Positions 5,401 through 28,035 of a DNA stretch of 32,000 bases are shown one piece after another; the stretch's first letter is position 1, and every line of letters starts with the position of its first letter. The stretch lies in NCBI GenBank assembly GCA_048886185.1, contig JBHLKY010000002.1, positions 60,001-92,000 of the forward strand. Direction: 5' to 3'. This DNA is from Candidatus Hermodarchaeota archaeon. Lineage in GTDB: Archaea > Asgardarchaeota > Heimdallarchaeia > Hodarchaeales > Hodarchaeaceae. The notes under the pieces were generated by a model. That model was given only the letters and a program-made list of their open reading frames with translations. It was not told the DNA's origin and did no database searches. The translations under genes and the position numbers were made by a program.

Positions 5401-8400
5401 CTATTTATATTCTGCGTACAACTCATGGGATCTTACAGGAGACGCTTATCCCATTGTATGGAGCGAGGACGGACTCTATCCACTTGTTGGAATAGTTGAA
5501 CGAATGGGTTCCTTAATTGTTATTGCTGGAGACTTAGATTATCGATTATATTATGCAGATAATGAGAAGTTTTTAGATAATCTTCTAGCTCAAGCCAGTA
5601 AAGGGTGTGGTGAGGGGATCGCCCTGAAATACTCTGATTTAATCACAAATTCCACCTCTCCAACGATTTCTTGGTGTTGGTATTTAGAAAATTCATCCTT
5701 CGACTATGTCGATATTTATTTAGATCAAATTTTTCAAGGCAGTTCGGTAAGCAATAACTTTAACCTAAGTACTTTGTCAGAAGGTGTCTACAATCTGACA
5801 GTTCGCCTTTATGACAATATTTCGAGAAGTTTTGTAGACTCTAATGACTTGATTATCGATTTAACGGAACCAATGGTATTTAATTATCCGATTACTAATG
5901 AATCAATTGTGACTTCTGGAAGAATTTATTTTGGTTGGAACACATCAGATAATTTGTCAGGGATCGCTGAAGAAAAACTGTACTGGAAAACTCCTTTTAA
6001 TCAGAGCTGGGATGAGATATGGTTGGACCCCCAATTCTACTACCCCTATTACACTGAGCTGTGTTTTTCTGAGAAAGGAGAATATATACTCAAAATTAGC
6101 ATATGGGATCATGCGGGAAATCGTAAGGATGAAATAATTATCTTTACCGTCGATCTTTTAATGGTCGGTTTTATCATGACACACGACGAAGCATCATTGT
6201 GGAATATCAGAGATTACTGTATTAATCAAGGATACATAACTGAAGATCTTTATTACGGTACTACTGTAACAAGAGAGTGGTTAGATAGGTTTGATATTGT
6301 TTTTATTGGTTATGGGGGCTATACACCGTGGTCAAGTACCGAACTCACAGCGCTTGAAGATTATCTGAATTCTGGAGGGAATATCGTCTATATCCACTAT
6401 GATTATTACGATCCACCATTATTACCCTGGTTGAGTTCTCTTGGTATTACGAAGGTAGATAATGGCCCAGGATCCCACTATACTACCACTTTTCTTCACT
6501 CCCATCCATTATTCTCAGATATCAGCCAAATTTATTTATATTACGCGTATGACTCATGGGATCTTACAGGAGACGCTTATCCCATTGTATGGAGCGAGGA
6601 CGGACTATATCAACTCATTGGTATTATTGAACGAATGGGTTCCTTGATTGTTATTGCTGGAAACTTTGATAATCGATTATATTATGCAGAAAACTATGAA
6701 TTTTTAGCAAATATATTTCAATATGCCACTCTAGGGCCTCGTGAAGGGATTTCAATTTCCTATGAAACGTTGATCTCTAACACTTCTTTCCCAACAATCT
6801 CATGGTTATGGAACCTAGAAAATACCTCTCTTGAATACTTCGAAGTATATATAGACAGTAATTACCTTGGAAATACAATAGAAACAAATTGGACCTTTTC
6901 ATCTTTATCCGAGGGAGTATACAACGTTACAATAATCCTGGTTGATAATATGACACATCAATTTTCAGACTCAGAATATCTAATAGTCGATAAGACAGCC
7001 CCAAACATTCTGACATCTAAGCAGGATGGAGATACAATTGGCGTAAATCAACTATTTTTCGATTGGAATTCCACAGATGAGTCATCAGGAATTTTTAAGG
7101 AGAAGATTTACTGGAAGACACCATTTAATGCGTCTTGGAATGAACTCTGGTATGATCCTTATATGGGATCTTCTATTACCTTATATTTTCCTGAGAATGG
7201 TAATTATGAAATTAAAATAAGTGCGTGGGATCAAGCAGGGAATCGGAAAGACGAAATTATTAGATTGACAGTTGAAATGATGAATATTGGCTTTATCAGC
7301 TCTCATGGAGAGGATAATCTTGATAATATTCGGTATTACTGTCAAAATCTTGGTGCTTTGACAGACACTCTTTATAGTAGTGATGTTTCATTTGAATGGC
7401 TAATCCAGTTTGATGTTGTCTTCATCGGTTATTCAGGTTATGAAGATTGGACAAACGCGGAGTTGGAAGCGTTAAACGATTATTATTATTTTGGTGGGTG
7501 GATTGTGTTCATTCACCGAGAGAATTATGATACCCCACTTGAAGAATGGCTTCAACAGAAAGGATTCACTCTCTCAGATCAAGGACCAGGATCTTTATGG
7601 ACAAACAATACTGATCAATCCCACCCATTATGTTTAGGGATAAATGATCTTTATTTCTATCGTGTTTATGCAAGCTGGTCACTTTCAGGACTAGTTACCC
7701 CAATAGTCTGGTCTTCTGATGGACAGTATACGATTGTAGGAATTCTAGACGAAGCAGGGAGTATCGTTGGTATTTCAGGCGACATAGAACGTTATGTATA
7801 TGATTATGATAATGACCTTTTCATTTCAAATATTTTGAATGAAGCAAAAATAAGTACGAAAGGAGGAATAATTCCGCATGGCGCTTCAATTCAATACATC
7901 AATCAAAATACCTTTCAGTTATCATGGCGGGCTTATCCTCCAAAGAATTCCAGTATAGACATTTTTGAAGTTTATGTAAATAGTACTCTTTTAGGTACAA
8001 CTAATGAGCAATTCTGGGATTTTTCAGATTTAATTGAAACTACCTACAATATTACGATAATTATGGTATTAGATAACTTTGAAAGAAAATCTGGACACAT
8101 TACTCTTATTGTAGATACAAGCGATCCAATTATACAAATTACTGACCCTTCAGATGGTGCTAAAATCAACCAAAAACTAATTCAGCTAAGATGGAATGTA
8201 ATAGACCAAAATCCTGAATCAATTTCATTTCGTGTTGAAATTTGGAACCCATCAGAGAATAAATGGGATGTCTTAGTTATAACAAATGAATTGTATGCTG
8301 ATATAGAAGTACAAAAGGTTGGTATGTGCCAAATAAGAGTTACTGGTATTGATATGGCTAAAAATCAAGGATTTGATGAAGTTACTCTTGATATAACTTT

Positions 8401-12227: not shown

Positions 12228-13613
12228 TTAGTAAATGAAGGGGATTCCAATATCCTCAAGTTCTTTCCGGGTTTTCTGATAAAGATTCAAATATTCAGGA
12301 GAAGGTTTGATCTTTCGGACATCATAGCATTCACGAAAGTCTTTCCCGAGAGGAGCTTCTTCAATATTCTCTTCATAGGTCTTCAAAAGAGTAAGTGTAA
12401 GCTCATTTGCATCTCCTCGAGAGATTTTCTCTATTGCCGCTCCGCATCCAACTTCAGCCGCCATTTTTGCTTCCATTGGAGTAGCATAATTCTTATGCCT
12501 ATTCTTTGCTACAGCCATTTCCCACAGATTTGCTCCGGAAACAACAGATACTAAACCATGAGTTGCTCCTTCTCTTAAAACCATCTCTGTACAGGGACCA
12601 GCAGCTGCAAATCCGTTTGACATCGATACAAAATTACTATTCCGAGATATGGCTTGATAAGTCGTGGAAATTACCCATAAGAGCTCTCGCATTGTATTGC
12701 AAGTGTGTTTTAAGTGGAAGGGAAAGTAATTCATGAAATGGGCTTGGTTAACAAGTAAACCCATTAAATGATAAGCAATACCTACAAGCGTGGTTCCCTC
12801 AGGGCCGCCTGCATATCCTCCAAGAATAGGTCCTGCAAGAGTGCCTACAAAACACCCATAAGTATGGAAATGAACCATCTTGTTTAAGAGAGAGTTATCT
12901 ATTTTGAGCTCTGTTATACTTGCTACGAAGCGTCCATCCGTTAATCGTTCTCCCCATTCAGAATTACTAGCAGCAATCTGTGCAGCATCTGATTCTGCAG
13001 TTCCAACACTTTTAAGGAAGATACCTGGGCGACCAACTCGTCTTGCAGACTCTCGGAACATCATAGCATGAGCAACAGCTCCTTTCACTTCCGAAGGAGA
13101 CCCAGAGCGAATGGGCATCCCCTCAATCTCATCAAGAATGGGGGCACAAACTCCATCAGCGAGAGGTTCTTGTAAGTACGCCATGGACATTGGAACGAAA
13201 ATATCCTCATCACATGTTATATCAGGTGAGAAAAGACAAAATGGTTTATTTGAATCCTCTATTTTTCTACTTGAGATTTCTTTGGAATCTCGGCCAAAAC
13301 CTAATGTAAACTTGCCAGGAAAGTTTCCAAGAGCCTCCTTTATCTCATCTTCGGTAAACAAAATCCTTCGATGAGTATCTGTACATAGAGTGCCAACCTC
13401 GAGGTATAAATCTAACGCAGCGTTCCATAGACTATCAGCTAACGTGTTATCATCTGGAACTGGTGTTGCAGGGTCAAAAGAAATGTCATATTCCTTGATG
13501 ACCCTCCTGAGTGCAGGAACTAAGAGTTTGAGGTCATAATCCTTCTCCAAACATACTGGCCCAGTTTCTGCTCTTTCCAACACTTCATTTATTCGCCAGG
13601 GAGGAGTAACCAT
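12228..13613 (-). CDS. mtmB: Monomethylamine methyltransferase (MtmB) family corrinoid methyltransferase, non-pyrrolysine form
   Basis: Full-length collinearity with Methanosarcina MtmB as I recall it (CTDTHR...TEDEI, GRPG, ELKID, PIxGGYAGGxE, AGPCTEM, MEA, GKxFxECYDV). No in-frame TAG; the Pyl position is Lys201 (AAA, 13013-13011). Confidence 0.92.
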   Translation of the reverse strand: MVTPPWRINEVLERAETGPVCLEKDYDLKLLVPALRRVIKEYDISFDPATPVPDDNTLADSLWNAALDLYLEVGTLCTDTHRRILFTEDEIKEALGNFPGKFTLGFGRDSKEISSRKIEDSNKPFCLFSPDITCDEDIFVPMSMAYLQEPLADGVCAPILDEIEGMPIRSGSPSEVKGAVAHAMMFRESARRVGRPGIFLKSVGTAESDAAQIAASNSEWGERLTDGRFVASITELKIDNSLLNKMVHFHTYGCFVGTLAGPILGGYAGGPEGTTLVGIAYHLMGLLVNQAHFMNYFPFHLKHTCNTMRELLWVISTTYQAISRNSNFVSMSNGFAAAGPCTEMVLREGATHGLVSVVSGANLWEMAVAKNRHKNYATPMEAKMAAEVGCGAAIEKISRGDANELTLTLLKTYEENIEEAPLGKDFRECYDVRKIKPSPEYLNLYQKTRKELEDIGIPFIY

Positions 13614-14276
13614 CTATCTCGCCCTTTTCTCGAGAAGATCCGCTGCTAGTTTCCCTGCTTGGACGGCAGTTTCAGCCCAACCATCGGCACCAATCTCTTC
13701 TTGCCACTGTACCGTAGTGGGGGCACCCCCGATAATCACTATATAGTCATCTCGTTTTCCCAGCGCTTCAAGCAGTTCAATGACTTCTTTCTGGGATACC
13801 ATTGTTGTAGTCATAAGCGCAGAGAGTGCTATTACATCAGCGTCTACTTCTCCAGCTTTTTCAATAAATTGCATAGAGGGAACATCCTTTCCTAAGTCAA
13901 ACACTTCAAAGCCTGAAACCTCGAGCATGATTTTCACGATGTTCTTACCAATCTCATGGATATCCCCATGGACGGTACCGATTACTACCTTCCCTTTCGA
14001 TTCGAGTCGCTCAGTAGTGGATTTCTTTATGTGTTCAGTTAATACCGAGGTAGCTGCCTGCATCGCTTCTGCAGCACCCATGAGCTCGGGAAGAAAAATA
14101 TCCATTTTATCAAATTGATCCCCTATTTGTTCCATTGTAGGACTCAATACCTCATCGATCACTTTTAAAGGATCCACCTGAGCATTTACGAGTTCTTGGG
14201 CTATTTCTTTAGCTTTTTCAGGCTCATACTCCTCTACTGATCGTTTTAAAGCTTCGAATAGACTCTCTATTGTCAT
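13614..14276 (-). CDS. mtmC: Methyltransferase cognate corrinoid protein (MtmC/MtbC/MttC family)
   Basis: N-terminal helical cap. Base-off/His-on B12 motif GTVHGDIHEIGK (DxHxxG), SALMTTT, IGGAP. Directly upstream of the mtmB homolog. Confidence 0.93.
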   Translation of the reverse strand: MTIESLFEALKRSVEEYEPEKAKEIAQELVNAQVDPLKVIDEVLSPTMEQIGDQFDKMDIFLPELMGAAEAMQAATSVLTEHIKKSTTERLESKGKVVIGTVHGDIHEIGKNIVKIMLEVSGFEVFDLGKDVPSMQFIEKAGEVDADVIALSALMTTTMVSQKEVIELLEALGKRDDYIVIIGGAPTTVQWQEEIGADGWAETAVQAGKLAADLLEKRAR

Positions 14277-14379: not shown

Positions 14380-15519
14380 TTACTTGGATAGCTGTGTAGC
14401 TTGTATTGCTAATTTTAATGCTAAAAGACCATTATCCTCTGTAATGACTCGTTGGTGTTTAGGATCACGAATAAATTTGATTTGATCTAATAATAAACTA
14501 CGAACTGCTTGGGCATAAAGCTCCATTTTCTCTAGGGGTGATTCATAATCTAGACGCACATCTTTGGTCACTGTGATGTCTTTTCCACGACCTTTCATTA
14601 GATGCTTTGCTGGATCAATTTCTTTCTCTTTTGTTATTCTCGTGTTCGGACAGATAGCTCTCAACGTGGCTAATTTTTCTTCATCAACGATGCCATTCAC
14701 AGTCAAGACGATTGGGATCCATCCTTCTATAGTTACATCACCAGTTTCAAATAATATTGTGTGTCTTTGTCGATCCAAGTGACTAGGCTGATCAAAGCCA
14801 TGATAATGGTTAGAAATAACATCTGATGACGTATGGCGAAGAAAACAAAATACTCGATCCACTTGAGTGGAATTAGGTCTATTCTGAGAGTATGCCCAAG
14901 TTACTTCTGTTTCCCCAAACCAATAACGGTAGAGATCAAAGAAATGAACTCCATGTTCTATAAAGATCCCCCCACTCTTCTTCTCATCCCAAAACCAATG
15001 ATTTTTATTTAAAGGTTCATCCGTGGCATAATTCTCGAAATATGCATGTAATGGTTCTCCCAACACTCGAGATTGAATGATTTCCTTTACATAATCCACA
15101 ATCGGAACATAACGTAAGACAAAATCAACAGGGATAATTAATTTCTTCTCTTTTGCAAGATTCACCATATCCTCTGCGTCTTCAAGGGATAAGGCTAACG
15201 GTTTCTCACAGAGAACATGCCTATTATACTTTAAGGCTTGCAGGCCGAAAACAGAATGAGTATCAGGAGGAGTCGCAATGTGAACAAGGTTAATCTCGGG
15301 ACTTTGAATTAACAAAGACGGTAGAGGAAACCATTGAATTCCATATTTTTGAGCAGTTTTTTTGGCAAGGTCAATGTCGATATCTGCAACAGCGACTATC
15401 TCAACCTCTTTCATACCTGAATAGGCATCTAAGCAAAATTGACCAAAATTACCGCAACCAATAAGCCCTAATTTGAGTGGAGTATTATCATTCATAGTTA
15501 AACCCAAAATTTTTCCCAT
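14380..15519 (-). CDS. Gfo/Idh/MocA family NAD(P)-dependent oxidoreductase
   Basis: GLIGCGNFG Rossmann motif, HVLCEKPLA, GGIFIEHGVHFFD. Start ATG 15519 or 15495. Confidence 0.92.
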   Translation of the reverse strand: MGKILGLTMNDNTPLKLGLIGCGNFGQFCLDAYSGMKEVEIVAVADIDIDLAKKTAQKYGIQWFPLPSLLIQSPEINLVHIATPPDTHSVFGLQALKYNRHVLCEKPLALSLEDAEDMVNLAKEKKLIIPVDFVLRYVPIVDYVKEIIQSRVLGEPLHAYFENYATDEPLNKNHWFWDEKKSGGIFIEHGVHFFDLYRYWFGETEVTWAYSQNRPNSTQVDRVFCFLRHTSSDVISNHYHGFDQPSHLDRQRHTILFETGDVTIEGWIPIVLTVNGIVDEEKLATLRAICPNTRITKEKEIDPAKHLMKGRGKDITVTKDVRLDYESPLEKMELYAQAVRSLLLDQIKFIRDPKHQRVITEDNGLLALKLAIQATQLSK

Positions 15520-15636
15520 TGACTAAAGATTACATTTGATCATTTAACTCAATGCAGATATGAAATATTTTATTTATTGATTGATCTAAGGAACCTAACT
15601 TTCTCGAAGAAATTTATGAATGAGGAAGGTTCTATA

Positions 15637-17661
15637 CTGGGAAAAGAAAAACTGAATAGTTTAATGGCTGGAATCGCATTAATAGGACTCCTTTGTACCA
15701 ATCCTCTTTCTACATGTTCACAAGTTATAATATCATCCAAATGGTCTTCAGAATTCCGTCCACATGGGGGATTTGTGGACAAAATCATGTTTCATGTGTA
15801 CACTGCGATCGAGACTCCTCTCGCGATGGCAGCGCTTCAAACGGGTGAGATCGACGCTTATGATGAACAAGTACAACAGAATTATCTAGCTGCAGTGGTA
15901 CGGGATGAGAATATTGAAGTAACATTTACACCAAGTGTAAGATATCAGGCATTGACATTGAATTGTGAACGATTTCCTACTAATATCACTGCTTTCCGTC
16001 GGGCGATGGCTTTTGGGTTTGATAAATACAGAGCGAATGTAGAGGTTATCGGTAGCGGAGTTGGACAACCTCAAGACAGTTACATTCCATTGATTATATC
16101 GGAATGGGAAGTGGAAAGTGCGCTCGCTGAACACTTCTATGAATCAGATTATATTTCTGGGAATAGATCACTCGAGAATGCGGGTTTTAAAAATTTGGAT
16201 ATTGATGGCTGGCGGGAGTATGACAAAAACAACAACGGTGTATGGGATCCTGGGATTGATTTAGACGATGATGAATATGTAAATGGAACTATCCTGCAAC
16301 TTTATGCTTTAGAAGGATCTGATCCTGCTATCAGAATGTGTGACATCATGGTGGATGGGCTTGAAGAGATGGGTGTCCGTGCGGAAACTGTAGTAATGGA
16401 TAATGATTTCATACTTGATGCTGTCTTCGCTGGAAATCATTGGTGTGTTTTTTGGATAGAAAGCTGTCCAGTGATTAATATTGCAAAAATCCTATACGAC
16501 CGCTTTAGAACTGGTGCCCAATGGAACAGAGAGCCGTACAACTATTATCACTATAGTAACAGCACGATTGATGCTATCCTTGATAATATGGTAGACGCGA
16601 CGAATATTGAAGATGTAAAGCAATATGCCTTGGATGCCAGCTTACTTTTAACGTTTGAGCAGCCCCAAATCGTTTACTTAAATTATGTAAATATTGGCGC
16701 TCATAGAAATGATGAGTTTGAAGGATTCTTCAAAGCTGCGGGATTAGGTGTCACCAGTGGTGAAAATTGGGCTGTAACAACAAAAATTCATCTGAAGGAG
16801 TCCCTTGGAGGGCCTTATGGCGGAATATTTGATTATTGTTTGTCAGGGGAGATGGGTACTTGGAACCCTTATTTGAAAAAAACGCAGTACGAAGCTACAG
16901 TCTTTCAGTACATCTATGAATACTTATGGAATTTCGACCCATTCACCTGGGATCCTATTCCTGGGTTAGCATACGACTGGGAAATTGAGCAGACGACTGC
17001 GAATGGAGACATCCGTGATGGCCAGAAATTCACCTTCTATTTATACCAGAACGAGACCTGGCATGATGGGGAACACTTCACTGCAGCTGATATTAACCAC
17101 TCTATTTACATGTGGAGAGACAGTCCATTCCATAGTCCCAATATGTGGGATATATATGAAACAGAACTCCCTGATGGGCCAGATGGGCACGTCATTGAAC
17201 TGTATGTTAACGAGACGGGGTACTTTGAGTGGGCGGATACCACACGATTCCTCATCACCCCTAAACACATCTGGGGAGAGGTGGAAAATGTCACCTCGTA
17301 TTCTCCAGAAATCAATCAGGTAATTGGAACGGGGCCATATATGTTACAAACATGGGTACCTGGAGAGTCTATTACTCTTGAACGGCATGAAGATTGGCGA
17401 TGGGATACTCGACATACTGGCAATGGCCACATTTTTTCTACCATAGAAGACGAAATCACTCTAATCCCACCAACAACTTCAGTTCCTACGACTAAAAACA
17501 CTTTCACTCCCAATTCTTCCTCGACACGCTCCTCCTACTCATCAATTTATTTGGTACCATCTTTTGACCTTATCCCTGTACTCCAGATGGTGGAACTTGG
17601 CACCATCCTGTTCTTTGTGATCACTGTAGTGATCATTATTCGACGAAACCAATTGAAATAA
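15637..17661 (+). CDS. ABC family-5 (OppA/DppA-like) substrate-binding protein 1, circularly permuted
   Basis: Motifs ALQxGxID, FRRAMAFGxD, DxDGWRE, WHDGxxFTAxD, GTGPY. Start revised from TTG 15577 to CTG 15637 (SD GAGGAAGGT + 6 nt; in-frame ATG 15616 is an alternative). C-terminal Ser/Thr linker + TM helix + RR. Confidence 0.88.
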   Translation: MGKEKLNSLMAGIALIGLLCTNPLSTCSQVIISSKWSSEFRPHGGFVDKIMFHVYTAIETPLAMAALQTGEIDAYDEQVQQNYLAAVVRDENIEVTFTPSVRYQALTLNCERFPTNITAFRRAMAFGFDKYRANVEVIGSGVGQPQDSYIPLIISEWEVESALAEHFYESDYISGNRSLENAGFKNLDIDGWREYDKNNNGVWDPGIDLDDDEYVNGTILQLYALEGSDPAIRMCDIMVDGLEEMGVRAETVVMDNDFILDAVFAGNHWCVFWIESCPVINIAKILYDRFRTGAQWNREPYNYYHYSNSTIDAILDNMVDATNIEDVKQYALDASLLLTFEQPQIVYLNYVNIGAHRNDEFEGFFKAAGLGVTSGENWAVTTKIHLKESLGGPYGGIFDYCLSGEMGTWNPYLKKTQYEATVFQYIYEYLWNFDPFTWDPIPGLAYDWEIEQTTANGDIRDGQKFTFYLYQNETWHDGEHFTAADINHSIYMWRDSPFHSPNMWDIYETELPDGPDGHVIELYVNETGYFEWADTTRFLITPKHIWGEVENVTSYSPEINQVIGTGPYMLQTWVPGESITLERHEDWRWDTRHTGNGHIFSTIEDEITLIPPTTSVPTTKNTFTPNSSSTRSSYSSIYLVPSFDLIPVLQMVELGTILFFVITVVIIIRRNQLK

Positions 17662-17720
17662 TTCCTTTTCAGATGGAATTTCCTACAGGTCTTAATTACG
17701 ACCCCGAAGTTGGAGAACTA

Positions 17721-17748
17721 CAATTGCGAGAATATTATACTTTATAAA
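17721..17748 (+). promoter_or_regulatory. Conserved promoter element CAATTGC about 20 nt upstream of TATA box TTTATAAA (SBP2)
   Basis: Same motif and spacing upstream of SBP3; degenerate copies upstream of SBP4 and SBP1. Confidence 0.55.
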
Positions 17749-17818
17749 GGGCAAACCCTAGGATACTAGAATTTTCATAGTTTGTTCATCAGGGACGTAT
17801 ATTGAGGAAGGATATATC

Positions 17819-19780
17819 CTGAAAATAGAGACCTTGAGCTGTTTTTTTATTGGATTTATCCTCTTAGGATTTTGCACCTCTAATACTGCTAATCAAACAC
17901 ACTTGGTTATTAAGAGCTCCAAGTGGGCCTCGGAGTTTCGCCCTTATGGGGGATATGTCGACGAGATAGAGTTTGTAATTTTCACAGAAACAGAAATCCC
18001 CCTTGCTATGTTAGCACTCCAAAACGGAGATATTGACGCATATGATGAACGTATATTACAAGATTATCTTGCAGCGCTCGTAAGGGATCAGAATATTGAT
18101 GTAACCTTCACTCCTAGTGTTCGTTATCGAGCACTCACCTTGAATTGTGAGAAATTCCCACTTAATATCACAGCATTCCGTCGAGCGATGGCTTTTGGGT
18201 TTGATAAATACCGAGCGAATGTAGAATGCATTGGAGGTGTTGGCCAACCTCAAGATGGTCACATCCCAATTAGCGCTACTGAATGGGAGATAGACAGTGA
18301 GGTCTCAAATCACTTCTATGAGGCCGATTTTGCCTCAGGAAACGCATCTCTGGAAAATGCTGGCTTTATCGATTTAGACGGTGATGGTTGGCGGGAATTT
18401 GATGCTGATGGTTCCAAAGATTGGTCTGTTGGGGACTTAGACCATGATGCATATGCTGATGGTGATATTATACAACTATATGCCAGTCTTGGATACGATC
18501 CACCGATTAGAGTCTGTAATATCATGGTTGATGGGCTTAGATCTATGGGTATAATGGCTGAAACATTAGTAGATTGGTTTGATTACATGAGTGAATTATG
18601 GTCTGGTAGAGGTTGGGCTCTTTGCTGGACAGAGGGCATTACTATCACTAATCCTTCACAATTGCTATATGACAATTTTCGAACTGATGCAAAATATAAT
18701 AGAGACCCGTATAGCTATTATCACTTCAGTAATGCCACTATTGATCAGGTTCTCGACCAAATGATAAATTCGACCTCCCTTGAAGATACTAAAAGCTATG
18801 CAAAGGAAGCTGCTTCATTACTGGCTTTTGAACAACCTCAGATTGTATGCTACAACGATGTCAATATTAACGCTTATCGAACAGACAAGTTTGAGGGATT
18901 CTTTGAGTTCAAAGGAATTGGTTCTTCGTCAGGAGATAATCCATATCTTATGCCTAAAGTATTCAGAAAGGAATCAGAAGGGGGGCCTTATGGGGGAACG
19001 TTCAAATATTGTTTATCGGGTAAGCTAAACACGCTTAATCCTTATTTATATCAAACTGATTATGATAGAACAGTCTTCCAGAACATCTATGAGACCCTGT
19101 GGAATATCGACCCATTCACTTGGGATCCCATTCCAGGGTTAGCTTATGATTGGGACATCGAACAAACAATTGCCAATGATGATATCCGTGATGGTCAGAA
19201 ATATACTTACTATCTGTATCAGAATGAAACCTGGCATGATGGAACACCATTCACAGCTCAAGACGTTAATGTCTCGATCCTTCAGTGGAGAAGCTCTCCC
19301 CGCAGTGGTCCTGAGATGAAAGACATTTACAAGATCGAAATACCAGATGATTACACCATTGTCATATATGTGAATGAGACTGGTTTCTTCGAGTTTGCTG
19401 ATACTCAAGTTCCATATATAATACCGACTCACATCTATGATCCAAGTCTTGTTGGAAATATCACAGTTTTCAATCCGACACTTGATGATATGATTGGTAC
19501 TGGTCCGTATAAGCTCGCTGCACATGTCTCTGGTGAATATATCAGCCTGGAACACAATACCAACTGGCGTTGGGATAACAGGACTAGAGTCCCGTTAACC
19601 CCTGATGAGTATTATTGGATTTCCTCACAAAGCGAAACGGAAACGTCTTCTTCCCGCACGTCTACCTACTCAGATCACTCGTTTGACCTGCTTCCTGTCA
19701 TCCAGATACTAGAATTAGGCACTATTGTGCTTTTTTTGGTAACCCTGGTAATCATAATCCGACGACATCAACTGAACTAA
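17819..19780 (+). CDS. ABC family-5 substrate-binding protein 2, circularly permuted
   Basis: Same motifs as SBP1. Start revised to CTG 17819 (GAGGAAGGA + 6 nt); TTG 17834 is five codons downstream and removes the basic n-region. Confidence 0.88.
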   Translation: MKIETLSCFFIGFILLGFCTSNTANQTHLVIKSSKWASEFRPYGGYVDEIEFVIFTETEIPLAMLALQNGDIDAYDERILQDYLAALVRDQNIDVTFTPSVRYRALTLNCEKFPLNITAFRRAMAFGFDKYRANVECIGGVGQPQDGHIPISATEWEIDSEVSNHFYEADFASGNASLENAGFIDLDGDGWREFDADGSKDWSVGDLDHDAYADGDIIQLYASLGYDPPIRVCNIMVDGLRSMGIMAETLVDWFDYMSELWSGRGWALCWTEGITITNPSQLLYDNFRTDAKYNRDPYSYYHFSNATIDQVLDQMINSTSLEDTKSYAKEAASLLAFEQPQIVCYNDVNINAYRTDKFEGFFEFKGIGSSSGDNPYLMPKVFRKESEGGPYGGTFKYCLSGKLNTLNPYLYQTDYDRTVFQNIYETLWNIDPFTWDPIPGLAYDWDIEQTIANDDIRDGQKYTYYLYQNETWHDGTPFTAQDVNVSILQWRSSPRSGPEMKDIYKIEIPDDYTIVIYVNETGFFEFADTQVPYIIPTHIYDPSLVGNITVFNPTLDDMIGTGPYKLAAHVSGEYISLEHNTNWRWDNRTRVPLTPDEYYWISSQSETETSSSRTSTYSDHSFDLLPVIQILELGTIVLFLVTLVIIIRRHQLN

Positions 19781-19851
19781 TTCACTTTCAGAAGCATTAA
19801 AAACAGATTCAAATTACTTAAAAGCTTATATTAAGGAAAAAGGCAAAATAA

Positions 19852-19879
19852 CAATTGCAGAAAAATAAAACTTAATTAA
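19852..19879 (+). promoter_or_regulatory. Conserved promoter element CAATTGC 20 nt upstream of TATA-like TTAATTAA (SBP3)
   Basis: Identical spacing to the SBP2 promoter. Confidence 0.55.
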
Positions 19880-19953
19880 GCGAACGAGCTCTAGATCACT
19901 AGAACTTCAGCTTTTGTTACTAAAAGCGGAAATGAAAAGAGGAAGGACTTGTT

Positions 19954-21966
19954 CTGAAAAAAGGGGTATTAAATTATCTTATTATAGGATTTATCCTCCT
20001 AGCATTATGTACCCCAAACACCGTTAGAACAACAACTTTAATTTTAAAGAGCTCTAAGTGGTCCTCGGAGTTCCGCCCTTTTGGCGGATATGTGGACACA
20101 GTCCAGTTCTTAATTTATCCACTAACCGAATATCCTCTACCGATGCTAGCTTTGCAATTGGGAGATATCGATGCATTTGACGAACAGGTTCGGCAAGATT
20201 ACCTTGCTGGACTTCATAGGGACCCAAATATCGAACAAACTTTTACTCCGAGTTTAAGATATCGGGCACTGACCCTAAATTGTGCTAAATTCCCCACCAA
20301 TATCACAGCTTTTCGTCGTGCGATGGCGTTCGGGTTTGATAAAACCCGAGCGAATATCGAATGCATTGGAGGTGTTGGCCAACCTCAAGACAGTCATATT
20401 CCACTAATATCAACAGAGTGGGAAGTTGAAAGTGAACTCCCTGTGCACTTTTATGAGGCAGACTTTGTTGCTGGAAATGCATCACTTGAGAATGCTGGCT
20501 TCACCGACCTAGATGACGATGGTTGGCGTGAATACGATGCAGATGGCTCAGGTACATGGACTGCTGGCGACTTGGACCATACTTCATACACTGATGGTGG
20601 TATCATGGAGCTATATGCAACAGCAGGGTATGACCCTGCTATTAGAGCCTGTGATATCATGGTAGATGGGTTAGAGTCGATGGGTATCCGGTCAACTGTT
20701 GTTGAATTTGATTTACAACAATGGTTTGACTGTTTCTGCTTGCCCGTTCCTAGTGTTACTTGTTGGACAGAAGAAATTTCTATTGCCAATCCCTCAAGAA
20801 TCCTTTATGATAATTTTCATTCAACAGGGGGGAAGTATAACATAGATCCGTACAATTATTATCATTTTAGAAATAATACCATTAATTTTGCTTTGGATCA
20901 AATGATTACTTCCATAACCCTCAATGAAACCAAATACTATGCTCGGGAGGCTGCTAAATTATTAGCTTTTGAACAACCACAGATTGTCGTGTATAATGAC
21001 GTAATTATCAACGCTTATCGCACAGACAGATTTACAGGATTTTTTGAATTCAAAGGACTCGGAACTTCCTCAGGAGAAAATCCATATGTCGCCACAAAGG
21101 TACATCTCAAGGAATCATTAGGGGGACCTTACGGTGGATCCTTCAAATACTGTTTGTCGGGAGAGATGAATACATGGAATCCCTATCAACAAAAAACAAA
21201 ATACGAATCAACAGTCTTTCAATACATCTATGAGACTCTGTGGAATCTTGATCCCCTCACTTGGGATCCCATTCCAGGACTAGCGTATGATTGGAAAATT
21301 GAACAGACCTCCGCAAGTGGAGACATCCGTGAAGGCCAGAAATTCACCTTTTATTTATATCAGGATGAAACTTGGCATGATGGCGAGTCATTCACTGCAG
21401 CTGACGTGAACCACTCCATTTACATGTGGAGAGACAGCCCATATCATACTCCTAAAATGTGGGATATTTACAAGACGGAGCTTCCAGAAGGACCAGATGG
21501 ACACGTCATTGAAATCTATGTAAACGAAACGGGGTATTTTGAGTGGGTGGACACCACGCAATTCTATATCACCCCCAAGCATATCTGGCAAGAAGTAGAG
21601 AATGTCACCGCTTATAATCCAGCTATCAATGAGGTGATTGGAACGGGACCTTACAGGTTGGCCGATTGGGTACCTGGAGAATCAATCACTCTTGAACGAC
21701 ATGAAGACTGGCGATGGGACATTCGTGAAGTAAATTCTTACATTAATGGAGACACTTTTCCTTCAACTACACAACATCCAATAATAACCAGTGATGGTCA
21801 TTATTGGACTTCCTCACAAAGCGAAATGACAACCATTACTTATAACAATACCTACTTAGATTTCTCCATTAACCTGCTATCTGTCTTCCAGATTTTAGAG
21901 CTAGTTACTGTTGCGTTGTTCGTGGTCACTATAGTGATCATTATCCGCCGATACCAAGTGAATTAA
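19954..21966 (+). CDS. ABC family-5 substrate-binding protein 3, circularly permuted
   Basis: The frame is open upstream of the track start (GTG 20092) to a stop at 19933 and encodes a signal peptide collinear with SBP6. The only plausible initiator there is CTG 19954 (GAGGAAGGA + 6 nt). Confidence 0.88.
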   Translation: MKKGVLNYLIIGFILLALCTPNTVRTTTLILKSSKWSSEFRPFGGYVDTVQFLIYPLTEYPLPMLALQLGDIDAFDEQVRQDYLAGLHRDPNIEQTFTPSLRYRALTLNCAKFPTNITAFRRAMAFGFDKTRANIECIGGVGQPQDSHIPLISTEWEVESELPVHFYEADFVAGNASLENAGFTDLDDDGWREYDADGSGTWTAGDLDHTSYTDGGIMELYATAGYDPAIRACDIMVDGLESMGIRSTVVEFDLQQWFDCFCLPVPSVTCWTEEISIANPSRILYDNFHSTGGKYNIDPYNYYHFRNNTINFALDQMITSITLNETKYYAREAAKLLAFEQPQIVVYNDVIINAYRTDRFTGFFEFKGLGTSSGENPYVATKVHLKESLGGPYGGSFKYCLSGEMNTWNPYQQKTKYESTVFQYIYETLWNLDPLTWDPIPGLAYDWKIEQTSASGDIREGQKFTFYLYQDETWHDGESFTAADVNHSIYMWRDSPYHTPKMWDIYKTELPEGPDGHVIEIYVNETGYFEWVDTTQFYITPKHIWQEVENVTAYNPAINEVIGTGPYRLADWVPGESITLERHEDWRWDIREVNSYINGDTFPSTTQHPIITSDGHYWTSSQSEMTTITYNNTYLDFSINLLSVFQILELVTVALFVVTIVIIIRRYQVN

Positions 21967-22024
21967 TTCTTTTTTAATAGAATAATTACATTTCTCAATC
22001 TTTAGATGAATTATGAAAAAGCAT

Positions 22025-22054
22025 CATTTGCGGGAATAGGATGTTTTTTATAAT
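22025..22054 (+). promoter_or_regulatory. CATTTGC + TATA-like TTTATAAT upstream of the SBP4-5-6 unit
   Basis: Variant of the motif seen upstream of SBP2 and SBP3; spacing about 20-22 nt. Confidence 0.45.
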
Positions 22055-22124
22055 TTATTTACTCTTGAATAACCGATCTTTCTTTTTTATTTCGTGGTGA
22101 TTGTGAAAAGAGGAAGGAAATATC

Positions 22125-24080
22125 TCGCAAAAAAGAAAATTACTCACATTAATAATTGTAATTACTCTCCTAGGATTATTTTACCCTAATACCGTTAAAT
22201 CCACATCGTTAGGTAGTCGGAGCCCCAAATGGTCATCGGAATTTCGCCCATATGGAGGTTATGTTGATGAAATCAAGTTTATGATCTATCCTGATGAGGA
22301 AATCCCTCGCGCGATGTTAGCGCTACAAAATGGCGATATTGATGCCTATGATGAGCGCGTTCCGCAAGACTACTTAGCAGCTCTGGTGAGAGATCCAAAT
22401 ATTGAAGTAAGTTTTACACCAAGTGTCCGATACCGAGCTCTCACGCTAAACAGTGACCGATTTCCCTTAAACATCTCTGCGTTTCGTCGGGCTATGGCCT
22501 TCGGGTATGATAAATATCGTGCGAACTTGGAATGCATTGGAGGCGCGGGGTGGCCTCAAGATAGTTACATTCCGATAACTATCACTGAATGGGAAGTCGA
22601 GAGCGAGATGAGTGATCACTTCTATGAAGCAGATTATGTATTAGGCAACAGATCACTTGAAAACGCTGGATTCAAAGATATAGACGGGGATGGGTGGCGG
22701 GAATATGACAAAAACAATAATGGTGTGTGGGATACAGGCATTGACCTGAATGATGATGAATATGCCGATGGTGGGATAATAATACTCTACACAGTTCCTG
22801 GATATGACCCTGCCATCAAGGCGTGTGACATTATGGCAGATGGATTAGAAGCGATGGGGATTCGTAGTGAAGTTTTTGAACCTATTCTTATGCCTTATCC
22901 CTCCGATCATTGGAATCTTCATGTCAATTGTTGGACTGAAGGTATTCCTCTGATTAATCCATCTAAATGTTTGTATGATAACTTTAGAACAGGAGCGATT
23001 TTAAATACTGATCCTTACAACTACTATCACTTCAGTAACAGCACCATTGACGCAGTTTTCGACCAGATGATGGAAGCTACTAGCCTAGAGGACGTAAAGA
23101 CACATGCAAAAGAGGTTAATAGGTTATTAACCTTCGAACAACCGCAGATTGTTGTCTATAATGACGTGAATATTGGTGCTTACAGGAATGACAGGTGTGA
23201 AGGTTGGTTCGAGTTTACTGGATTAGGGCCGACTACGGGTGGTTATACCAAAAACAATCCGTACTGTGCTACCAAATTACATCTGAAGGAATCTTTGGGA
23301 GGACCATTTGGTGGAACGTTAAAGAACTGTTTATCGGGAGAAATGAATACGCGGAATCCCTATTTACTGCAAACAAGATACGATTCAACGGTCTTTCAGT
23401 ACATTTATGAGACCCTGTGGAATATCGACCCATATACCTGGGATCCTATTCCAGGCTTAGCGTATGATTGGGGGATTGAACAGACCACTGCGGGTGGAGA
23501 CATCCGAGATGGCCAAAAGGTCACATTTTACCTGTATGAAAACGAGACATGGCATGATGGAGAACCCTTTACTGCAGCTGACGTAAACCACTCCCTATAT
23601 CTGTGGAAGAGCTCTCCCCGAAGTGGGGTAGAGATGGCAGATATCTATAAAGTTGAGTTACCTAACGGACCCGATGGTCATACTATCGAAATATTTGTGA
23701 ATAAGACTGGATACTTCGAGTGGGCAGACACCACACACTTTTACATCACCCCCGAGCACATCTGGCGTGAGGTGACCAATGTGTCCGCTTTCGTTCCAAC
23801 TAACGATCAGATTGTTGGTACGGGGCCCTATAAGTGGAACGAACATGTCCCTGGAGAGTATATCAGGCTAGTTCGCGATGAGAAGTGGCGGTGGGATATC
23901 CGTGATGTTGGTTATTTGATTGAAAGCACTTATTCTACTCATTCCTCCACGAATGTACCTGCAACTGAAAGCTCTGCCCCAACAAGCACTCCAGGATTTA
24001 CTTCTGTAACCATACTAGTATTCGTTGTTGTTCTCCTTGTCAAGCGTTCAAAAAGAGAAAGAAAGAAGGATTACATATGA
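22125..24080 (+). CDS. ABC family-5 substrate-binding protein 4, circularly permuted; start codon anomalous
   Basis: The frame is open upstream of ATG 22281 to a stop at 22104 and encodes a signal peptide (QKRKLLTLIIVITLLGLFYPN) collinear with SBP6. The codon at the expected start is TCG. TPGF + TM + basic tail. Confidence 0.82.
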   Translation, partial: SQKRKLLTLIIVITLLGLFYPNTVKSTSLGSRSPKWSSEFRPYGGYVDEIKFMIYPDEEIPRAMLALQNGDIDAYDERVPQDYLAALVRDPNIEVSFTPSVRYRALTLNSDRFPLNISAFRRAMAFGYDKYRANLECIGGAGWPQDSYIPITITEWEVESEMSDHFYEADYVLGNRSLENAGFKDIDGDGWREYDKNNNGVWDTGIDLNDDEYADGGIIILYTVPGYDPAIKACDIMADGLEAMGIRSEVFEPILMPYPSDHWNLHVNCWTEGIPLINPSKCLYDNFRTGAILNTDPYNYYHFSNSTIDAVFDQMMEATSLEDVKTHAKEVNRLLTFEQPQIVVYNDVNIGAYRNDRCEGWFEFTGLGPTTGGYTKNNPYCATKLHLKESLGGPFGGTLKNCLSGEMNTRNPYLLQTRYDSTVFQYIYETLWNIDPYTWDPIPGLAYDWGIEQTTAGGDIRDGQKVTFYLYENETWHDGEPFTAADVNHSLYLWKSSPRSGVEMADIYKVELPNGPDGHTIEIFVNKTGYFEWADTTHFYITPEHIWREVTNVSAFVPTNDQIVGTGPYKWNEHVPGEYIRLVRDEKWRWDIRDVGYLIESTYSTHSSTNVPATESSAPTSTPGFTSVTILVFVVVLLVKRSKRERKKDYI

Positions 24081-26056
24081 GGAAAACACATATGTATCTT
24101 TTAATGATCGGAATCGTACTTTTAGGCATTTTATGTCCCATTCCTCAGTCTAAATCAGCGATAGAGGAAAGAGTTCCCACATGGTCATCAGATTTCCGTC
24201 CATATGGAGGGTATGTCGATGAAGTCAAGTTTATAATCTATCCTGATGAGGACATCCCTCTGGCGATATTAGCACTACAAAAAGGGGACATTGATGCCTA
24301 TGATGAGAGTGTTCCACAAGATTACTTAGCAGCTCTTGTGAATGATCCGAACATTGAAGTGACTTTTACACCAAGTGTCAGATACAGAGTCCTCAAGTTA
24401 AATTGTGAGCTTTTCCCCTTAAACATCACCGCATTTCGTCGGGCTTTGGCCTTCGGGTATGATAAATATCGTGCGAACTTGGAATGCATTGGAGGCGCGG
24501 GGTGGCCTCAAGATAGTTACATTCCGATAACTATCACTGAATGGGAAGTCGAGAGCGAGATGAGTGATCACTTCTATGAGGCAGATTATGTGTTAGGCAA
24601 CAGATCACTTAAAAATGCTGGTTTCAAAGACTTAGATGGAGACGGGTGGCGAGAATATGACAAAAACAATAATAGTGTTTGGGATCCAGGGGTTGATTTA
24701 GACGATGATACTTATGCTCAAAGTCATTATACCAATGATATGGGCATCTTGGATATGTTTGTTACAGCAGGATATGACCCTGCTATCAAGGCGTGTGAAA
24801 TAATGGTAGATACTCTTGCAGAAATGGGGATTCGTTCGAAAATCATTGAAATAGACCCGCGTGCTCTCGATTCCTATCCTTCTGATCTTTATCTAAACGG
24901 TGAGGTAATTTGCCAGACTGATGGTATTGCTTTTATTAATACACCTAAATTTCTGTATAATAATTTTGCTACTGGAGGATGGCTTAATACAGATCCCTAC
25001 AATCATTATCATTTTAATAATGACACGATCTCTGCTATTCTTGAAGATATGGTCGCTGCCAGTGATATCAATGAAGTTAAGCAATATGCTCGTGAAGCAA
25101 GCTCACTATTGGCCTTTGAGCAACCACAAATTGTGGTTTACAACGATGTTGACATCAATGCTTACCGTAATGACAGATTTGATGGCTGGTTTGAATTTAG
25201 GGGTGCTGGGGTGTCCAGTGGTGACAACTGGGCCTGTGCAACCAAGGTACACCTCAAAGAGTCCCATGTTGGGCCTTATGGTGGAAGCTTCTACTATTGT
25301 TTATCTGATAACATGGGAACCTTAAATCCCTATTACCAAAAAACGGGTTACGAAGATACTGTTTTTCAGTACATCTATGAAAAACTATGGAATATCGATC
25401 CAATTACCTGGGATCCTATTCCAGGATTAGCGTACAATTGGGAGATTGAGCAGACCTCTGCAGGTGGAGACAATCAAGATGGCCAAAAGTTCACGTTCTA
25501 CCTGTATGAGAACGAGACATGGCATGATGGGGAACCCTTTACTGCAGCCGACGTGAATCACTCCATCTACCTGTGGAGGAGCTCTCCTCGAAGTAAAGTA
25601 GAAATGGCAGATATCTATAAAGTTGAGTTGCCCGAGGGGCCAGAAGGCCATATTATCGAAATTTTTGTCAATAAGACAGGATATTTTAAGTGGGCGGATA
25701 CCACGCGCTTTTACATTACCCCTGAACATATCTGGCGCGATGTGACAAATATATCAGCATTCATTCCGACTGACGATCAAACGATTGGCACGGGGCCTTA
25801 TATGTGGAACGAACATGTCCCTGGAGAGTACATCAGTCTTCTTCGTCACGAGGATTGGCGGTGGGATATCCGTGACAAAGATAATCATTTTATAAGTCAG
25901 TTCGGATCCACTCAATGCTCGACATCAATTACGATATCTCAGAGCTCTATCCCAACAACCAGTCCAGGGTTCACTGCTTTAACGTCACTAGCGTTATTAG
26001 TAGGTGCTCTCTTTGTTAAACTGTCGAAAAGAAAAGGAAAGGAGAATTACCCATGA
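24077..26056 (+). CDS. ABC family-5 substrate-binding protein 5, circularly permuted
   Basis: ATG overlaps the SBP4 stop (ATGA). SD AAGAAGGA + 6 nt. Signal peptide; SPGF + TM + basic tail. Confidence 0.9.
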   Translation: MRKTHMYLLMIGIVLLGILCPIPQSKSAIEERVPTWSSDFRPYGGYVDEVKFIIYPDEDIPLAILALQKGDIDAYDESVPQDYLAALVNDPNIEVTFTPSVRYRVLKLNCELFPLNITAFRRALAFGYDKYRANLECIGGAGWPQDSYIPITITEWEVESEMSDHFYEADYVLGNRSLKNAGFKDLDGDGWREYDKNNNSVWDPGVDLDDDTYAQSHYTNDMGILDMFVTAGYDPAIKACEIMVDTLAEMGIRSKIIEIDPRALDSYPSDLYLNGEVICQTDGIAFINTPKFLYNNFATGGWLNTDPYNHYHFNNDTISAILEDMVAASDINEVKQYAREASSLLAFEQPQIVVYNDVDINAYRNDRFDGWFEFRGAGVSSGDNWACATKVHLKESHVGPYGGSFYYCLSDNMGTLNPYYQKTGYEDTVFQYIYEKLWNIDPITWDPIPGLAYNWEIEQTSAGGDNQDGQKFTFYLYENETWHDGEPFTAADVNHSIYLWRSSPRSKVEMADIYKVELPEGPEGHIIEIFVNKTGYFKWADTTRFYITPEHIWRDVTNISAFIPTDDQTIGTGPYMWNEHVPGEYISLLRHEDWRWDIRDKDNHFISQFGSTQCSTSITISQSSIPTTSPGFTALTSLALLVGALFVKLSKRKGKENYP

Positions 26057-28035
26057 AAAAAGGAAGTTTATTAAGCTTATTAATAGGACTTACCCTTCTA
26101 GGACTTTTTTACCCGAATACTGTTCAAACAACACCCTCAATTATAAGGAGTCCCAAATGGTCATCGGAATTTCGCCCCTATCCTGGCGGATACGTGGATG
26201 AGATCGAGTTTATGATCTATCCTGATGAGGATATCCCTCTGGCGATATTAGCACTACAAAATGGGGACATTGATGTGTATGATGAGCGGGTTCCGCAAGA
26301 TTACTTAGCAGGTCTGGTGAGTGATCCGAATATTGAGGTGACCTTTACGCCAAGTGTCCGATATAGAGCCCTCACGCTAAATTGTGACCGATTCCCCTTA
26401 AACATCACCGCGTTCCGTCGAGCTATGGCCTTCGGATATGATAAATCCCGAGCAAACAGGGAATGCATTGGAGGTGCGGGGTGGCCTCAAGATAGTTACA
26501 TTCCGATAACTATCTCTGAATGGGAAGTCGAAAGCGAGATGAGTGATCACTTCTATGAGGCAGATTATGTGTTAGGCAACAGATCACTTGAAAACGCTGG
26601 GTTCAAAGATTTAGACGGAGATGGGTGGCGGGAATACGACGCTAATGGTAATGATGCCTGGGATGTTGGTGTTGACTTAGATGATGATGAATACGCTGAT
26701 ATGACGCCTGGAACCTCATCCATAATAGAAATGTATGCTTTAGCTGCTTATGATCCATCTATCAAAGCCATTGATATCATGGTAGATGGATTAGAAGAAA
26801 TGGGAGTTCGATGTTACGCTTATCCTCCTGATTTCTTACCCACCCCACCAGATCCCATGGCCTTTGATGTCCTGTGCTGGAATGAGGGCATTCCATTAAC
26901 CAATCCATCCAAATGCCTGTATGAAAACTTCAGAACGGATGCTAAGTATAATGGAGGCCTCTATAACTACTATCACTTCAGTAACAGCACAATTGACGCA
27001 GTTTTTGATCAGATGATAGAAGCTACCACTTTAGAGGATGTAAAGACATATGCGAAAGAGGTCAATAGATTTTTAACCTTCGAACAACCGCAGATTGTTG
27101 TCTATAATGACGTGAATATTGGTACTCACCGGAATGACAGATTTGATGGTTGGTTTGAGTTTACGGGGTTGGGACCGACTACAGGTGGTTACATTCAGAA
27201 TAATCCATACTGTGCTACCAAATTACATCTGAAGGAATCTTTGGGAGGACCATTTGGTGGAACATTGTACTACTGTTTATCTGGCACGATAGATACTCTA
27301 AATCCTTATTTACAAAAATGGGATAGAGAAGAAACTGTCTTTCAGTATATCTATGATCAACTATGGAGTATCGATCCATATACATGGGATCCCATTCCAG
27401 GATTAGCGTATGATTGGGAGATTGAACAGACCACTGCGGGTGGAGACATCCGAGATGGCCAAAAGTTCACGTTCTACTTGTATGAAAACGAGACATGGCA
27501 TGATGGGGAACCCTTTACTGCAGCCGACGTAAACCACTCCCTATATCTGTGGAAGAGCTCTCCCCGAAGTGGGATAGAGATGGCGGAAATCTACAAAGTT
27601 GAGTTACCCGATGGATCCGAAGGCCATACTATCGAAATATATGTCAACAAGACAGGATATTTCGAGTGGGCAGACACCACCTGGTTTTACATCACCCCCG
27701 AGCATATCTGGCGTGAGGTGACCAATGTATCAGCATTCATCCCAATTAACAATCAGATTATTGGCACGGGGCCTTATAAATGGGAAAATCATGTCCCTGG
27801 AGAGTATATCAGGCTAGTTCGCGGTGAGAATTGGCGATGGGATATCCGTGATGGTGATTGTACACAAATTAAAAACACTTATTCTACTCAGCCCTCCACG
27901 AGTATACCTTCAACTGAAAGCTCCGCCCCAACAAGCACAACAACAGGCACTCCAGGATTTACTTCTGTTACCATACTAGTATTCGCTGTGGCTCTCCTTG
28001 TCAAGTGTTCAAAAAGAGAAGGAAAGAAGGATTAG
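26053..28035 (+). CDS. ABC family-5 substrate-binding protein 6, circularly permuted
   Basis: ATG overlaps the SBP5 stop (ATGA). Signal peptide; TPGF + TM + basic tail. Confidence 0.9.
   Translation: MKKGSLLSLLIGLTLLGLFYPNTVQTTPSIIRSPKWSSEFRPYPGGYVDEIEFMIYPDEDIPLAILALQNGDIDVYDERVPQDYLAGLVSDPNIEVTFTPSVRYRALTLNCDRFPLNITAFRRAMAFGYDKSRANRECIGGAGWPQDSYIPITISEWEVESEMSDHFYEADYVLGNRSLENAGFKDLDGDGWREYDANGNDAWDVGVDLDDDEYADMTPGTSSIIEMYALAAYDPSIKAIDIMVDGLEEMGVRCYAYPPDFLPTPPDPMAFDVLCWNEGIPLTNPSKCLYENFRTDAKYNGGLYNYYHFSNSTIDAVFDQMIEATTLEDVKTYAKEVNRFLTFEQPQIVVYNDVNIGTHRNDRFDGWFEFTGLGPTTGGYIQNNPYCATKLHLKESLGGPFGGTLYYCLSGTIDTLNPYLQKWDREETVFQYIYDQLWSIDPYTWDPIPGLAYDWEIEQTTAGGDIRDGQKFTFYLYENETWHDGEPFTAADVNHSLYLWKSSPRSGIEMAEIYKVELPDGSEGHTIEIYVNKTGYFEWADTTWFYITPEHIWREVTNVSAFIPINNQIIGTGPYKWENHVPGEYIRLVRGENWRWDIRDGDCTQIKNTYSTQPSTSIPSTESSAPTSTTTGTPGFTSVTILVFAVALLVKCSKREGKKD

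Follow-up and report, generated by a model that had tools for sequence, protein, structure and literature searches.

CTG as the probable initiation codon of three tandem solute-binding protein genes in an Asgard archaeon

Where does translation begin when the codon that follows a well-spaced Shine-Dalgarno (SD)-like motif is CTG? This question is raised by a 32,000-nucleotide stretch of DNA (G000:C2:60001-92000, hereafter the window; G stands for genome, C for contig and L for homolog) from a metagenome-assembled genome (MAG) of 4.84 Mb in 75 contigs with 35% GC. Its source is a Heimdall/Hodarchaeales-type Asgard archaeon. Between 15.6 and 28.0 kb, the window carries six tandem paralogs of the solute-binding protein (SBP) family SBP_bac_5 (PF00496), here termed SBP1 to SBP6, all of which score 125-140 bits against a Pfam cut-off of 32.4. 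Each product begins with a signal-peptide-like segment and has a hydrophobic anchor with a basic tail at its C-terminus. Comparison of sequences makes it highly likely that translation of SBP1, SBP2 and SBP3 starts at a CTG located 6-7 nt downstream of the SD-like motif AGGAAGG, and that these genes are functional, their products being surface-anchored solute-binding proteins.

The full strings are GAGGAAGGT-TCTATA-CTG in SBP1 (15622-15639), GAGGAAGGA-TATATC-CTG in SBP2 (17804-17821) and GAGGAAGGA-CTTGTT-CTG in SBP3 (19939-19956). All lie on the forward strand, with the SD-like motifs at 15622..15630, 17804..17812 and 19939..19947 and the proposed initiation codons at 15637..15639, 17819..17821 and 19954..19956, respectively. 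These strings were first pointed out in an earlier note made from the window's letters, and all three are present where it placed them. The general pattern GAGGAAGG(T/A)-N6-CTG occurs three times in the window versus 0.01 expected from shuffles, and each occurrence precedes an intact SBP_bac_5 gene; the three genes are paralogs and hence do not represent three independent events. Read from CTG, all three are intact open reading frames (ORFs) of 650-675 codons: SBP1 at 15637..17661 (PF00496, 4e-36), with an N-terminal signal/lipobox-like peptide and a C-terminal transmembrane anchor, SBP2 at 17819..19780 (1.3e-40) and SBP3 at 19954..21966 (2.3e-36). The GAAGG of the motif ends at -8 from the CTG, which is the genome's normal SD-to-start distance; measured by G content, the SD signal of the genome is highest at -12 to -8. 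Likewise, at 2171, 2447, 14276, 24077 and 30285, where the earlier note had seen the same spacing, a purine-rich SD-like motif lies 5-6 nt before a canonical start. Taking CTG as codon 1 also brings the signal peptides into register with those of the ATG-started SBP5 and SBP6, as had been proposed, with Gly12 in all five proteins and G or A at position 17; the CTG of SBP1 thus aligns with the ATG of SBP5 and SBP6 and with the CTG of an ortholog, L002.

The simplest alternative is that the three genes start where gene callers place them, at ATG 15616, TTG 17834 and GTG 20092, and that the CTG is a plain leucine codon or lies in untranslated sequence. NCBI annotation picks precisely these three codons, which the earlier note had named as the starts that would speak against its reading, and the canonical-start forms stand in public protein collections. 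However, common gene callers accept only ATG, GTG and TTG, and the annotated short forms of SBP1-3 follow from that restriction and are not evidence on where initiation occurs. The alternative is weakest for SBP3. Its frame, closed upstream by TGA 19933, begins at 19936, and no canonical start follows until GTG 20092, 46 codons on, inside the conserved mature domain and without an SD. A protein begun there would lack both the signal peptide and KWSSEFRP, a motif found family-wide, and the public collections contain SBP3 only as this 624-aa form, minus the signal peptide and 46 residues. As had been claimed, SBP3 has no in-frame ATG, GTG or TTG that would keep the signal peptide, there being none between 19933 and 20092, and CTG 19954 is the sole initiator-like codon that retains it. 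For SBP2, which is on record from TTG 17834, the canonical codon is five codons into the frame and 22 nt from the SD, and the resulting signal peptide lacks a charged n-region. In SBP1, ATG 15616..15618 (forward strand), the NCBI-annotated start, is in frame seven codons upstream of the CTG and 5ʹ of the SD, and the N-terminus it would give, MNEEGSIL, is plausible, if acidic. The equivalent ATG is out of frame (offset 22) in L002, an ortholog of SBP1/SBP3, and so is the ATG that precedes the SD in SBP3. Moreover, canonical starts account neither for the invariance of the rarest leucine codon at a site whose synonymous surroundings are saturated nor for the genome-wide association of CTG with SD motifs, both described below. 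Annotated starts therefore do not work for SBP3, fit SBP2 poorly and are a possibility only for SBP1; as an explanation of all three genes, they are very unlikely.

The position of the CTG can be followed through the family. A set of 33 members from 11 genomes of the genus was assembled, comprising the six window paralogs, four additional ones of this genome and 23 homologs from ten others. These share a common layout, (T)AGGAAGG(A) or AGGAG followed after 6-7 nt by the first codon, and their N-termini all read M/L-[RKG]-K-x-K-hydrophobic. Among 31 full-length members, the start-position codon is ATG in 19; the rest have TTG, GTG, CTG (five members), ATA (one) or TCG (one). An initiator-like codon behind the same SD, ATG, TTG or GTG in most cases, is thus conserved at this position among orthologs and paralogs, as the proposal of CTG initiation had anticipated, with SBP4 as the exception. 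The CTG holders are SBP1, SBP2, SBP3, L002 (species G014) and L027, from the closed genome G010. L027 reads GGAAGGA-N7-CTG AAA AGT GTG and represents a second, independent CTG, albeit an ambiguous one because a GTG follows three codons later. The ATA start belongs to L025 (G016:C18), which reads AGGGGA-TATGTT-ATA AGA AAA.

In a maximum-likelihood tree of the family, built with the signal-peptide columns omitted, SBP1, SBP2, SBP3 and L002 form one clade (SH-aLRT 99%), and all four have CTG. The change to CTG therefore arose once and was inherited by the three paralogs; of the earlier claim that CTG is conserved in three paralogs, the retention stands, whereas the paralogs count as a single origin and not as three events. 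This state has outlasted two duplications and one speciation. Within the clade, the proportion of synonymous differences (pS) is 0.58-0.75, which is saturated, and the ratio of nonsynonymous to synonymous substitution (dN/dS) is 0.10-0.15, indicating that all copies are under purifying selection. Apart from a few scattered bases, two blocks alone are conserved over the 84 columns spanning -48 to +36: AGGAAGG, which is invariant in the clade, and the CTG itself. The spacers between them (TCTATA, TATATC, CTTGTT and AAGTAC) have nothing in common, in agreement with the earlier observation that they diverged while the CTG was kept. Furthermore, CTG is the rarest leucine codon in the genome (5.7% of leucine codons); conservation of leucine alone would therefore not have preserved it. 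With synonymous sites saturated and spacers unrelated, the invariance of CTG in this four-member clade exceeds the neutral expectation.

In a tandem array evolving by birth and death, the CTG genes might instead be silent or decaying copies that have lost their start codons. The family does include a truncated fragment elsewhere in the genome (C13), and SBP4 carries the non-initiator TCG at the homologous position. However, decaying genes would not be expected to remain intact over 650-675 codons at the dN/dS values above with dS saturated, nor to keep CTG through two duplications and one speciation. In addition, essential-looking single-copy genes of the same genome share the same CTG state in 8-10 species. 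Decay of the three genes is accordingly most improbable.

SBP4 (22122..24080, forward strand; PF00496, 5.2e-37) is the member whose start codon is ambiguous. It has the same GAGGAAGGA-N6 arrangement as SBP2 and SBP3 (22110-22124, with the motif at 22110..22118), followed by TCG instead of CTG. The sole near-cognate candidate is ATC 22122, one codon upstream of the TCG and therefore at a shorter SD spacing; the two codons together occupy 22122..22127, the TCG being the homologous start position. The first canonical start, ATG 22281, lies within the mature domain, and the form it would produce is not on record in public protein collections. SBP4 is sister to the ATG-started SBP6, and dN/dS between them is 0.21, again in keeping with purifying selection.

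A further observation concerns the sequence just 5ʹ of the SD. Many family members, ATG-started ones included, have a conserved ATGAA or GTGAA 2-6 nt upstream of the motif. Such sites occur at 15616-15621, 19932-19937 and 22103-22108 in the window, in contigs C32 and C4 of the same genome (G000), and in L002, L006, L007, L014 and L017. They open a mini-ORF (ATG AAA TAG or ATG AAT AAA TAG) or, in SBP3 and SBP4, an out-of-frame overlapping ORF of 28-31 codons; in SBP3, the ATG at 19932..19934 (forward strand, offset 22) opens a 31-codon overlapping frame, as read from the sequence. The element could be an upstream ORF or a transcript-start element. Inspection by eye for a TATA box about 26 nt 5ʹ of these ATGs, as a leaderless promoter would have, found none, whereas an AT-rich TATA-like element (also by eye) lies 70-80 nt 5ʹ of the start in the 150-320 nt of intergenic sequence that precedes each of SBP1-4.

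These upstream codons offer another route into the frame: translation could start at the ATG or GTG immediately before the SD (19932 in SBP3, 22103 in SBP4), with a programmed +1 frameshift or transcriptional slippage on an A-run then bringing it into the SBP frame. In SBP3, SBP4 and L002, an ATG or GTG does stand at offset 22, in the +1 frame, and is followed by AAAAGAGG and later A6 runs. However, SBP2 has no upstream codon and that of SBP1 is in frame, the A_AAA_AAG heptamer of SBP4 would shift by -1 into the wrong frame, and the upstream ATGs have no SD at a working distance. ATG-started members (C32, L007, L017 and L014) also have this ATGAA, differently offset or terminated by a stop codon, with no need of it. 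Slippage is likewise disfavored by assembled contigs: in four sediment-metagenome runs of one study, separately assembled contigs are identical to the window over 15400-22397, with zero substitutions or indels, which excludes an assembly slip. The length of the A-runs is constant in these contigs, and the TCG of SBP4 is likewise unchanged. The four runs are possibly source samples of the MAG and are not independent samples. A start by programmed +1 frameshift was rejected, as the members that need one do not all share a conserved in-phase upstream start with a shift site; of the explanations weighed here, a shifted or slipped frame is the least credible.

Initiation at CTG would be expected to leave a trace beyond one gene family, and a genome-wide association of CTG with correctly spaced SD motifs, which the earlier note had put forward as a check, was found. 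Upstream of first ATGs, the genome has a G-rich SD at -14 to -8 with the consensus (A/T)GGAGGTGA, and the 5-mers GAGGA, GAAGG and AGGAA show 5-9x enrichment ahead of ATG starts. The test drew on all 3451 stop-to-stop ORFs with a length of 150 codons or more. It considered in-frame codons that precede the first ATG, GTG or TTG by 8 codons or more, dropped those that had a canonical start between -3 and +6 nt, and scored each for a core SD 5-mer ending 6-11 nt before it. CTG had a core SD in 13 of 107 cases (12.1%) compared with 237 of 10576 (2.2%) for the pooled codons (p=5.5e-7). The runners-up were GAC (p=0.007) and ATT (p=0.03), and after correction only CTG stands. For comparison, the rates for first-in-frame canonical codons are 18% for ATG, 16% for TTG and 11% for GTG. 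The SD of the enriched CTGs peaks at -9/-8 (3ʹ end of the core 5-mer), as for ATG, whereas other codons are flat at 0.4%. When SD set, spacing window and distance threshold were varied, CTG came out on top in all 12 settings, repeatedly followed by ATA and ATT; with a wide set of 35 SD words and nearby canonical starts kept, the signal was modest (14.9% for CTG versus about 10%). The SBP sites are absent from the core-SD set, and the genome-wide result is therefore independent of the SBP finding. With the loosest distance threshold, 7 of 93 CTGs in 2 Mb of the closed genome CP070695.1 (G010), a member of the genus, had a core SD versus 2% (p=2e-3), a weaker trend in the same direction from a test with less power. 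As a side observation, ACG is mildly enriched behind SDs in that genome (3 of 36, including positions 1273081 and 556194).

Several of the candidate genes outside the SBP family require the CTG for their catalytic N-terminus, including a PP-loop ATPase ((L)KVVVLVSGGKDS), a flavin adenine dinucleotide (FAD) enzyme (LTEYDCIIIGAGSVG), a CoA-transferase and a nucleotidyltransferase-like protein. Alignment of orthologs within the genus, another check the earlier note had suggested, revealed that CTG is interchanged with ATG, TTG, GTG, ACG, ATT and ATC. The start position of the PP-loop ATPase is ATG in 11 orthologs, TTG in seven, GTG in two, ATT in two and CTG in one. That of the CoA-transferase, always behind AAGGTGG, is CTG in 10 species, ACG in five, ATG in two and TTG in one, and that of the nucleotidyltransferase-like gene is CTG in eight species, ATC in one and TTG in one. 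For a fourth gene, two species have CTG at this position, and a distant homolog has ATG. The ACG-started CoA-transferase orthologs are L078 and L080-L083, from G020, G021, G002, G018 and G004. Further near-cognates are found at start positions in this genome, with ATT or ATC at C25 (reverse-strand 6676), C33:27903, C26:20801 and C42 (reverse-strand 740); the genes concerned include those for a HycI-like protease ((I)KILVLGIGNELAGDD), an FAD enzyme and an alpha/beta hydrolase. In relatives, ATT or ATC starts occur in the PP-loop ATPase and nucleotidyltransferase orthologs L057, L060 and L105. AAG and AGG were not seen among the near-cognate start codons of the SD test, the settings scan and the orthologs.

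The prominence of CTG and ACG bears on the possibility that initiation is canonical and that the mRNA is edited from C to U, turning CUG into UUG and, in relatives, ACG into AUG, as in plant organelles. The two commonest odd starts of the genus are indeed each one C-to-U step from a canonical start. However, editing gives no account of ATT, ATC and ATA at the start positions of this genome and of orthologs, and C-to-U editing of mRNA is not known in archaea. Editing is thus improbable to nearly the same degree as the annotated starts.

Several points weigh against CUG initiation. The apparently intact SBP4 has TCG at the homologous position, which indicates that the SD-N6 slot can hold a non-initiator codon. 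For two of the three genes, gene callers have an in-frame canonical codon to use (ATG 15616 in SBP1 and TTG 17834 in SBP2). The SBP motif GAGGAAGG agrees only partly with the genome's core SD GGAGGTGA. A genome search found no 16S rRNA gene, the MAG being without assembled rRNA, so that the anti-SD and the SD consensus GGAGGTGA are drawn from k-mer enrichment and not read directly. In the closed genome CP070695.1, the CTG signal is weak at stricter thresholds (p=0.03). Finally, a search of sequencing runs for this stretch returned the four DNA runs and no RNA run. Set against these are the homology of the position, the conservation of SD and CTG, the genome-wide enrichment and the unrelated genes with CTG in 8-10 species, a comparison that supports the earlier proposal of selected near-cognate CUG initiation. 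On this sequence evidence, SBP1-3 very probably initiate at CUG.

The machinery for such initiation would be ordinary. Pairing of SD and anti-SD would set the CUG in the ribosomal P site, where the usual initiator Met-tRNA (anticodon CAU) may read it with a single C-U mismatch at codon position 1 and a geometry as at GUG and UUG. The SBP1-3 proteins would then begin with methionine, followed by the basic n-region of the signal peptide. The initiator tRNA predicted in the genome (aragorn, introns allowed) is canonical, with a CAU anticodon, A1:U72 and a GGG/CCC anticodon stem; the genome also encodes an ordinary tRNA-Leu(CAG) and one aIF1. Both ribosome initiation at the CTG and insertion of methionine there are inferred.

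How widely the codon is used can be estimated roughly. Judged by the excess of CTG over background relative to that of ATG, (12.1-2.2)/(18-2.2), CTG-started genes would number in the tens and make up roughly 1-2% of long ORFs. This rough extrapolation suggests that CUG serves as a minor fourth start codon, on that order, in the organism and its genus. AUU, AUA and AUC would be used more rarely than CUG in both, and ACG may be used as well in relatives. A broader proposal is that Heimdall/Hodarchaeales-type Asgards have a relaxed regime in which CUG, ACG and AUU/AUC/AUA are selected initiators for about 1-2% of genes, with a near-cognate hierarchy as in eukaryotes, and in which start-codon strength is a heritable expression setting (low for SBP1-3, high for the ATG-coupled SBP5 and SBP6). 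This generalization is tentative, and the odds are somewhat against it; if it were true, published Asgard proteomes would systematically truncate such genes.

The remainder of the array and its surroundings can be described briefly. SBP5 (24077..26056, forward strand) starts with ATG behind AGAAGGA-N6 and overlaps the SBP4 stop as ATGA, and SBP6 (26053..28035, forward strand) starts with ATG behind AAGGAG-N8 and overlaps the SBP5 stop in the same way. In the best Pfam stretch of the SBP paralogs, the start of the model (positions 2-141) matches residues ~447-600, a hint that the domain order is unusual or permuted. The ten neighboring ORFs scanned, all within the window, include none with an ABC permease or ATPase domain, and an Rfam scan of the window returned no RNA family. 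Elsewhere in the window, an MtmB-family methyltransferase of 461 aa (12228-14276, reverse strand) without an in-frame TAG adjoins a B12-binding corrinoid protein, and a giant ORF of 2320 aa (2447-9409, forward strand) has a TTG start behind GAGGGGT-AAAAG. Three candidate tRNAs labelled with anticodon CUA are present elsewhere in the genome (aragorn, intron mode).

Existing accounts of archaeal initiation leave little room for CUG. A review of the subject (PMC7531240) lists only AUG, GUG and UUG and does not mention CUG, and a second review (PMC4705826) gives the same three archaeal starts and treats CUG for eukaryotes only. A ribosome-profiling paper on H. volcanii reported about 30% near-cognate candidate sites, which were set aside there. 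A literature search for CUG or CTG starts in archaea or Asgard archaea found no paper describing them. CTG starts as such are already known, being permitted by translation table 11 and few in bacteria; conserved CUG starts in Asgard archaea, as proposed here, would be new. The SBP array would then be a thoroughly documented example of CUG initiation across the genus. For annotation, the start of SBP3 needs correction, and housekeeping enzymes would lose P-loop or Rossmann N-termini under current calls; the same truncation may affect eukaryotic-signature proteins in Asgard catalogues. Additionally, the natural SD-CUG and SD-ACG sites form a concrete set for studying the start-codon stringency of aIF1 and aIF2.

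Heimdall/Hodarchaeales-type Asgards are considered the archaea most closely related to eukaryotes, and the findings bear, with due caution, on whether tolerance of near-cognate codons predates eukaryotes. Near-cognate initiation in eukaryotes (CUG > GUG > ACG/AUU, restrained by eIF1) involves the same codons, CUG, ACG and AUU/AUC/AUA, and the present genome has its one aIF1. However, the codon here would be selected by SD pairing and not by scanning with Kozak context, and there is no evidence of a link by descent between the two. In plant organelles, ACG-to-AUG start codons are created by C-to-U RNA editing; there, too, a C-containing near-cognate stands at the genomic start position, but editing leaves the ATT, ATC and ATA starts seen here unexplained. 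Also comparable are the near-cognate starts of table 11 (CTG, ATT, ATC and ATA), in which a single gene has a start one base off AUG behind a normal ribosome-binding site. The AUU of E. coli infC is such a start, and only a handful of E. coli genes are alike, whereas the extrapolation here suggests tens of genes and relatives appear to use ACG, with its mismatch at the second position. A further likeness is to the familiar GUG and UUG starts of bacteria and archaea, which are likewise positioned by the SD, differ from AUG only at codon position 1 and interchange with ATG among orthologs. What differs is the codon itself, in this case CUG, conserved across a genus and statistically visible genome-wide.

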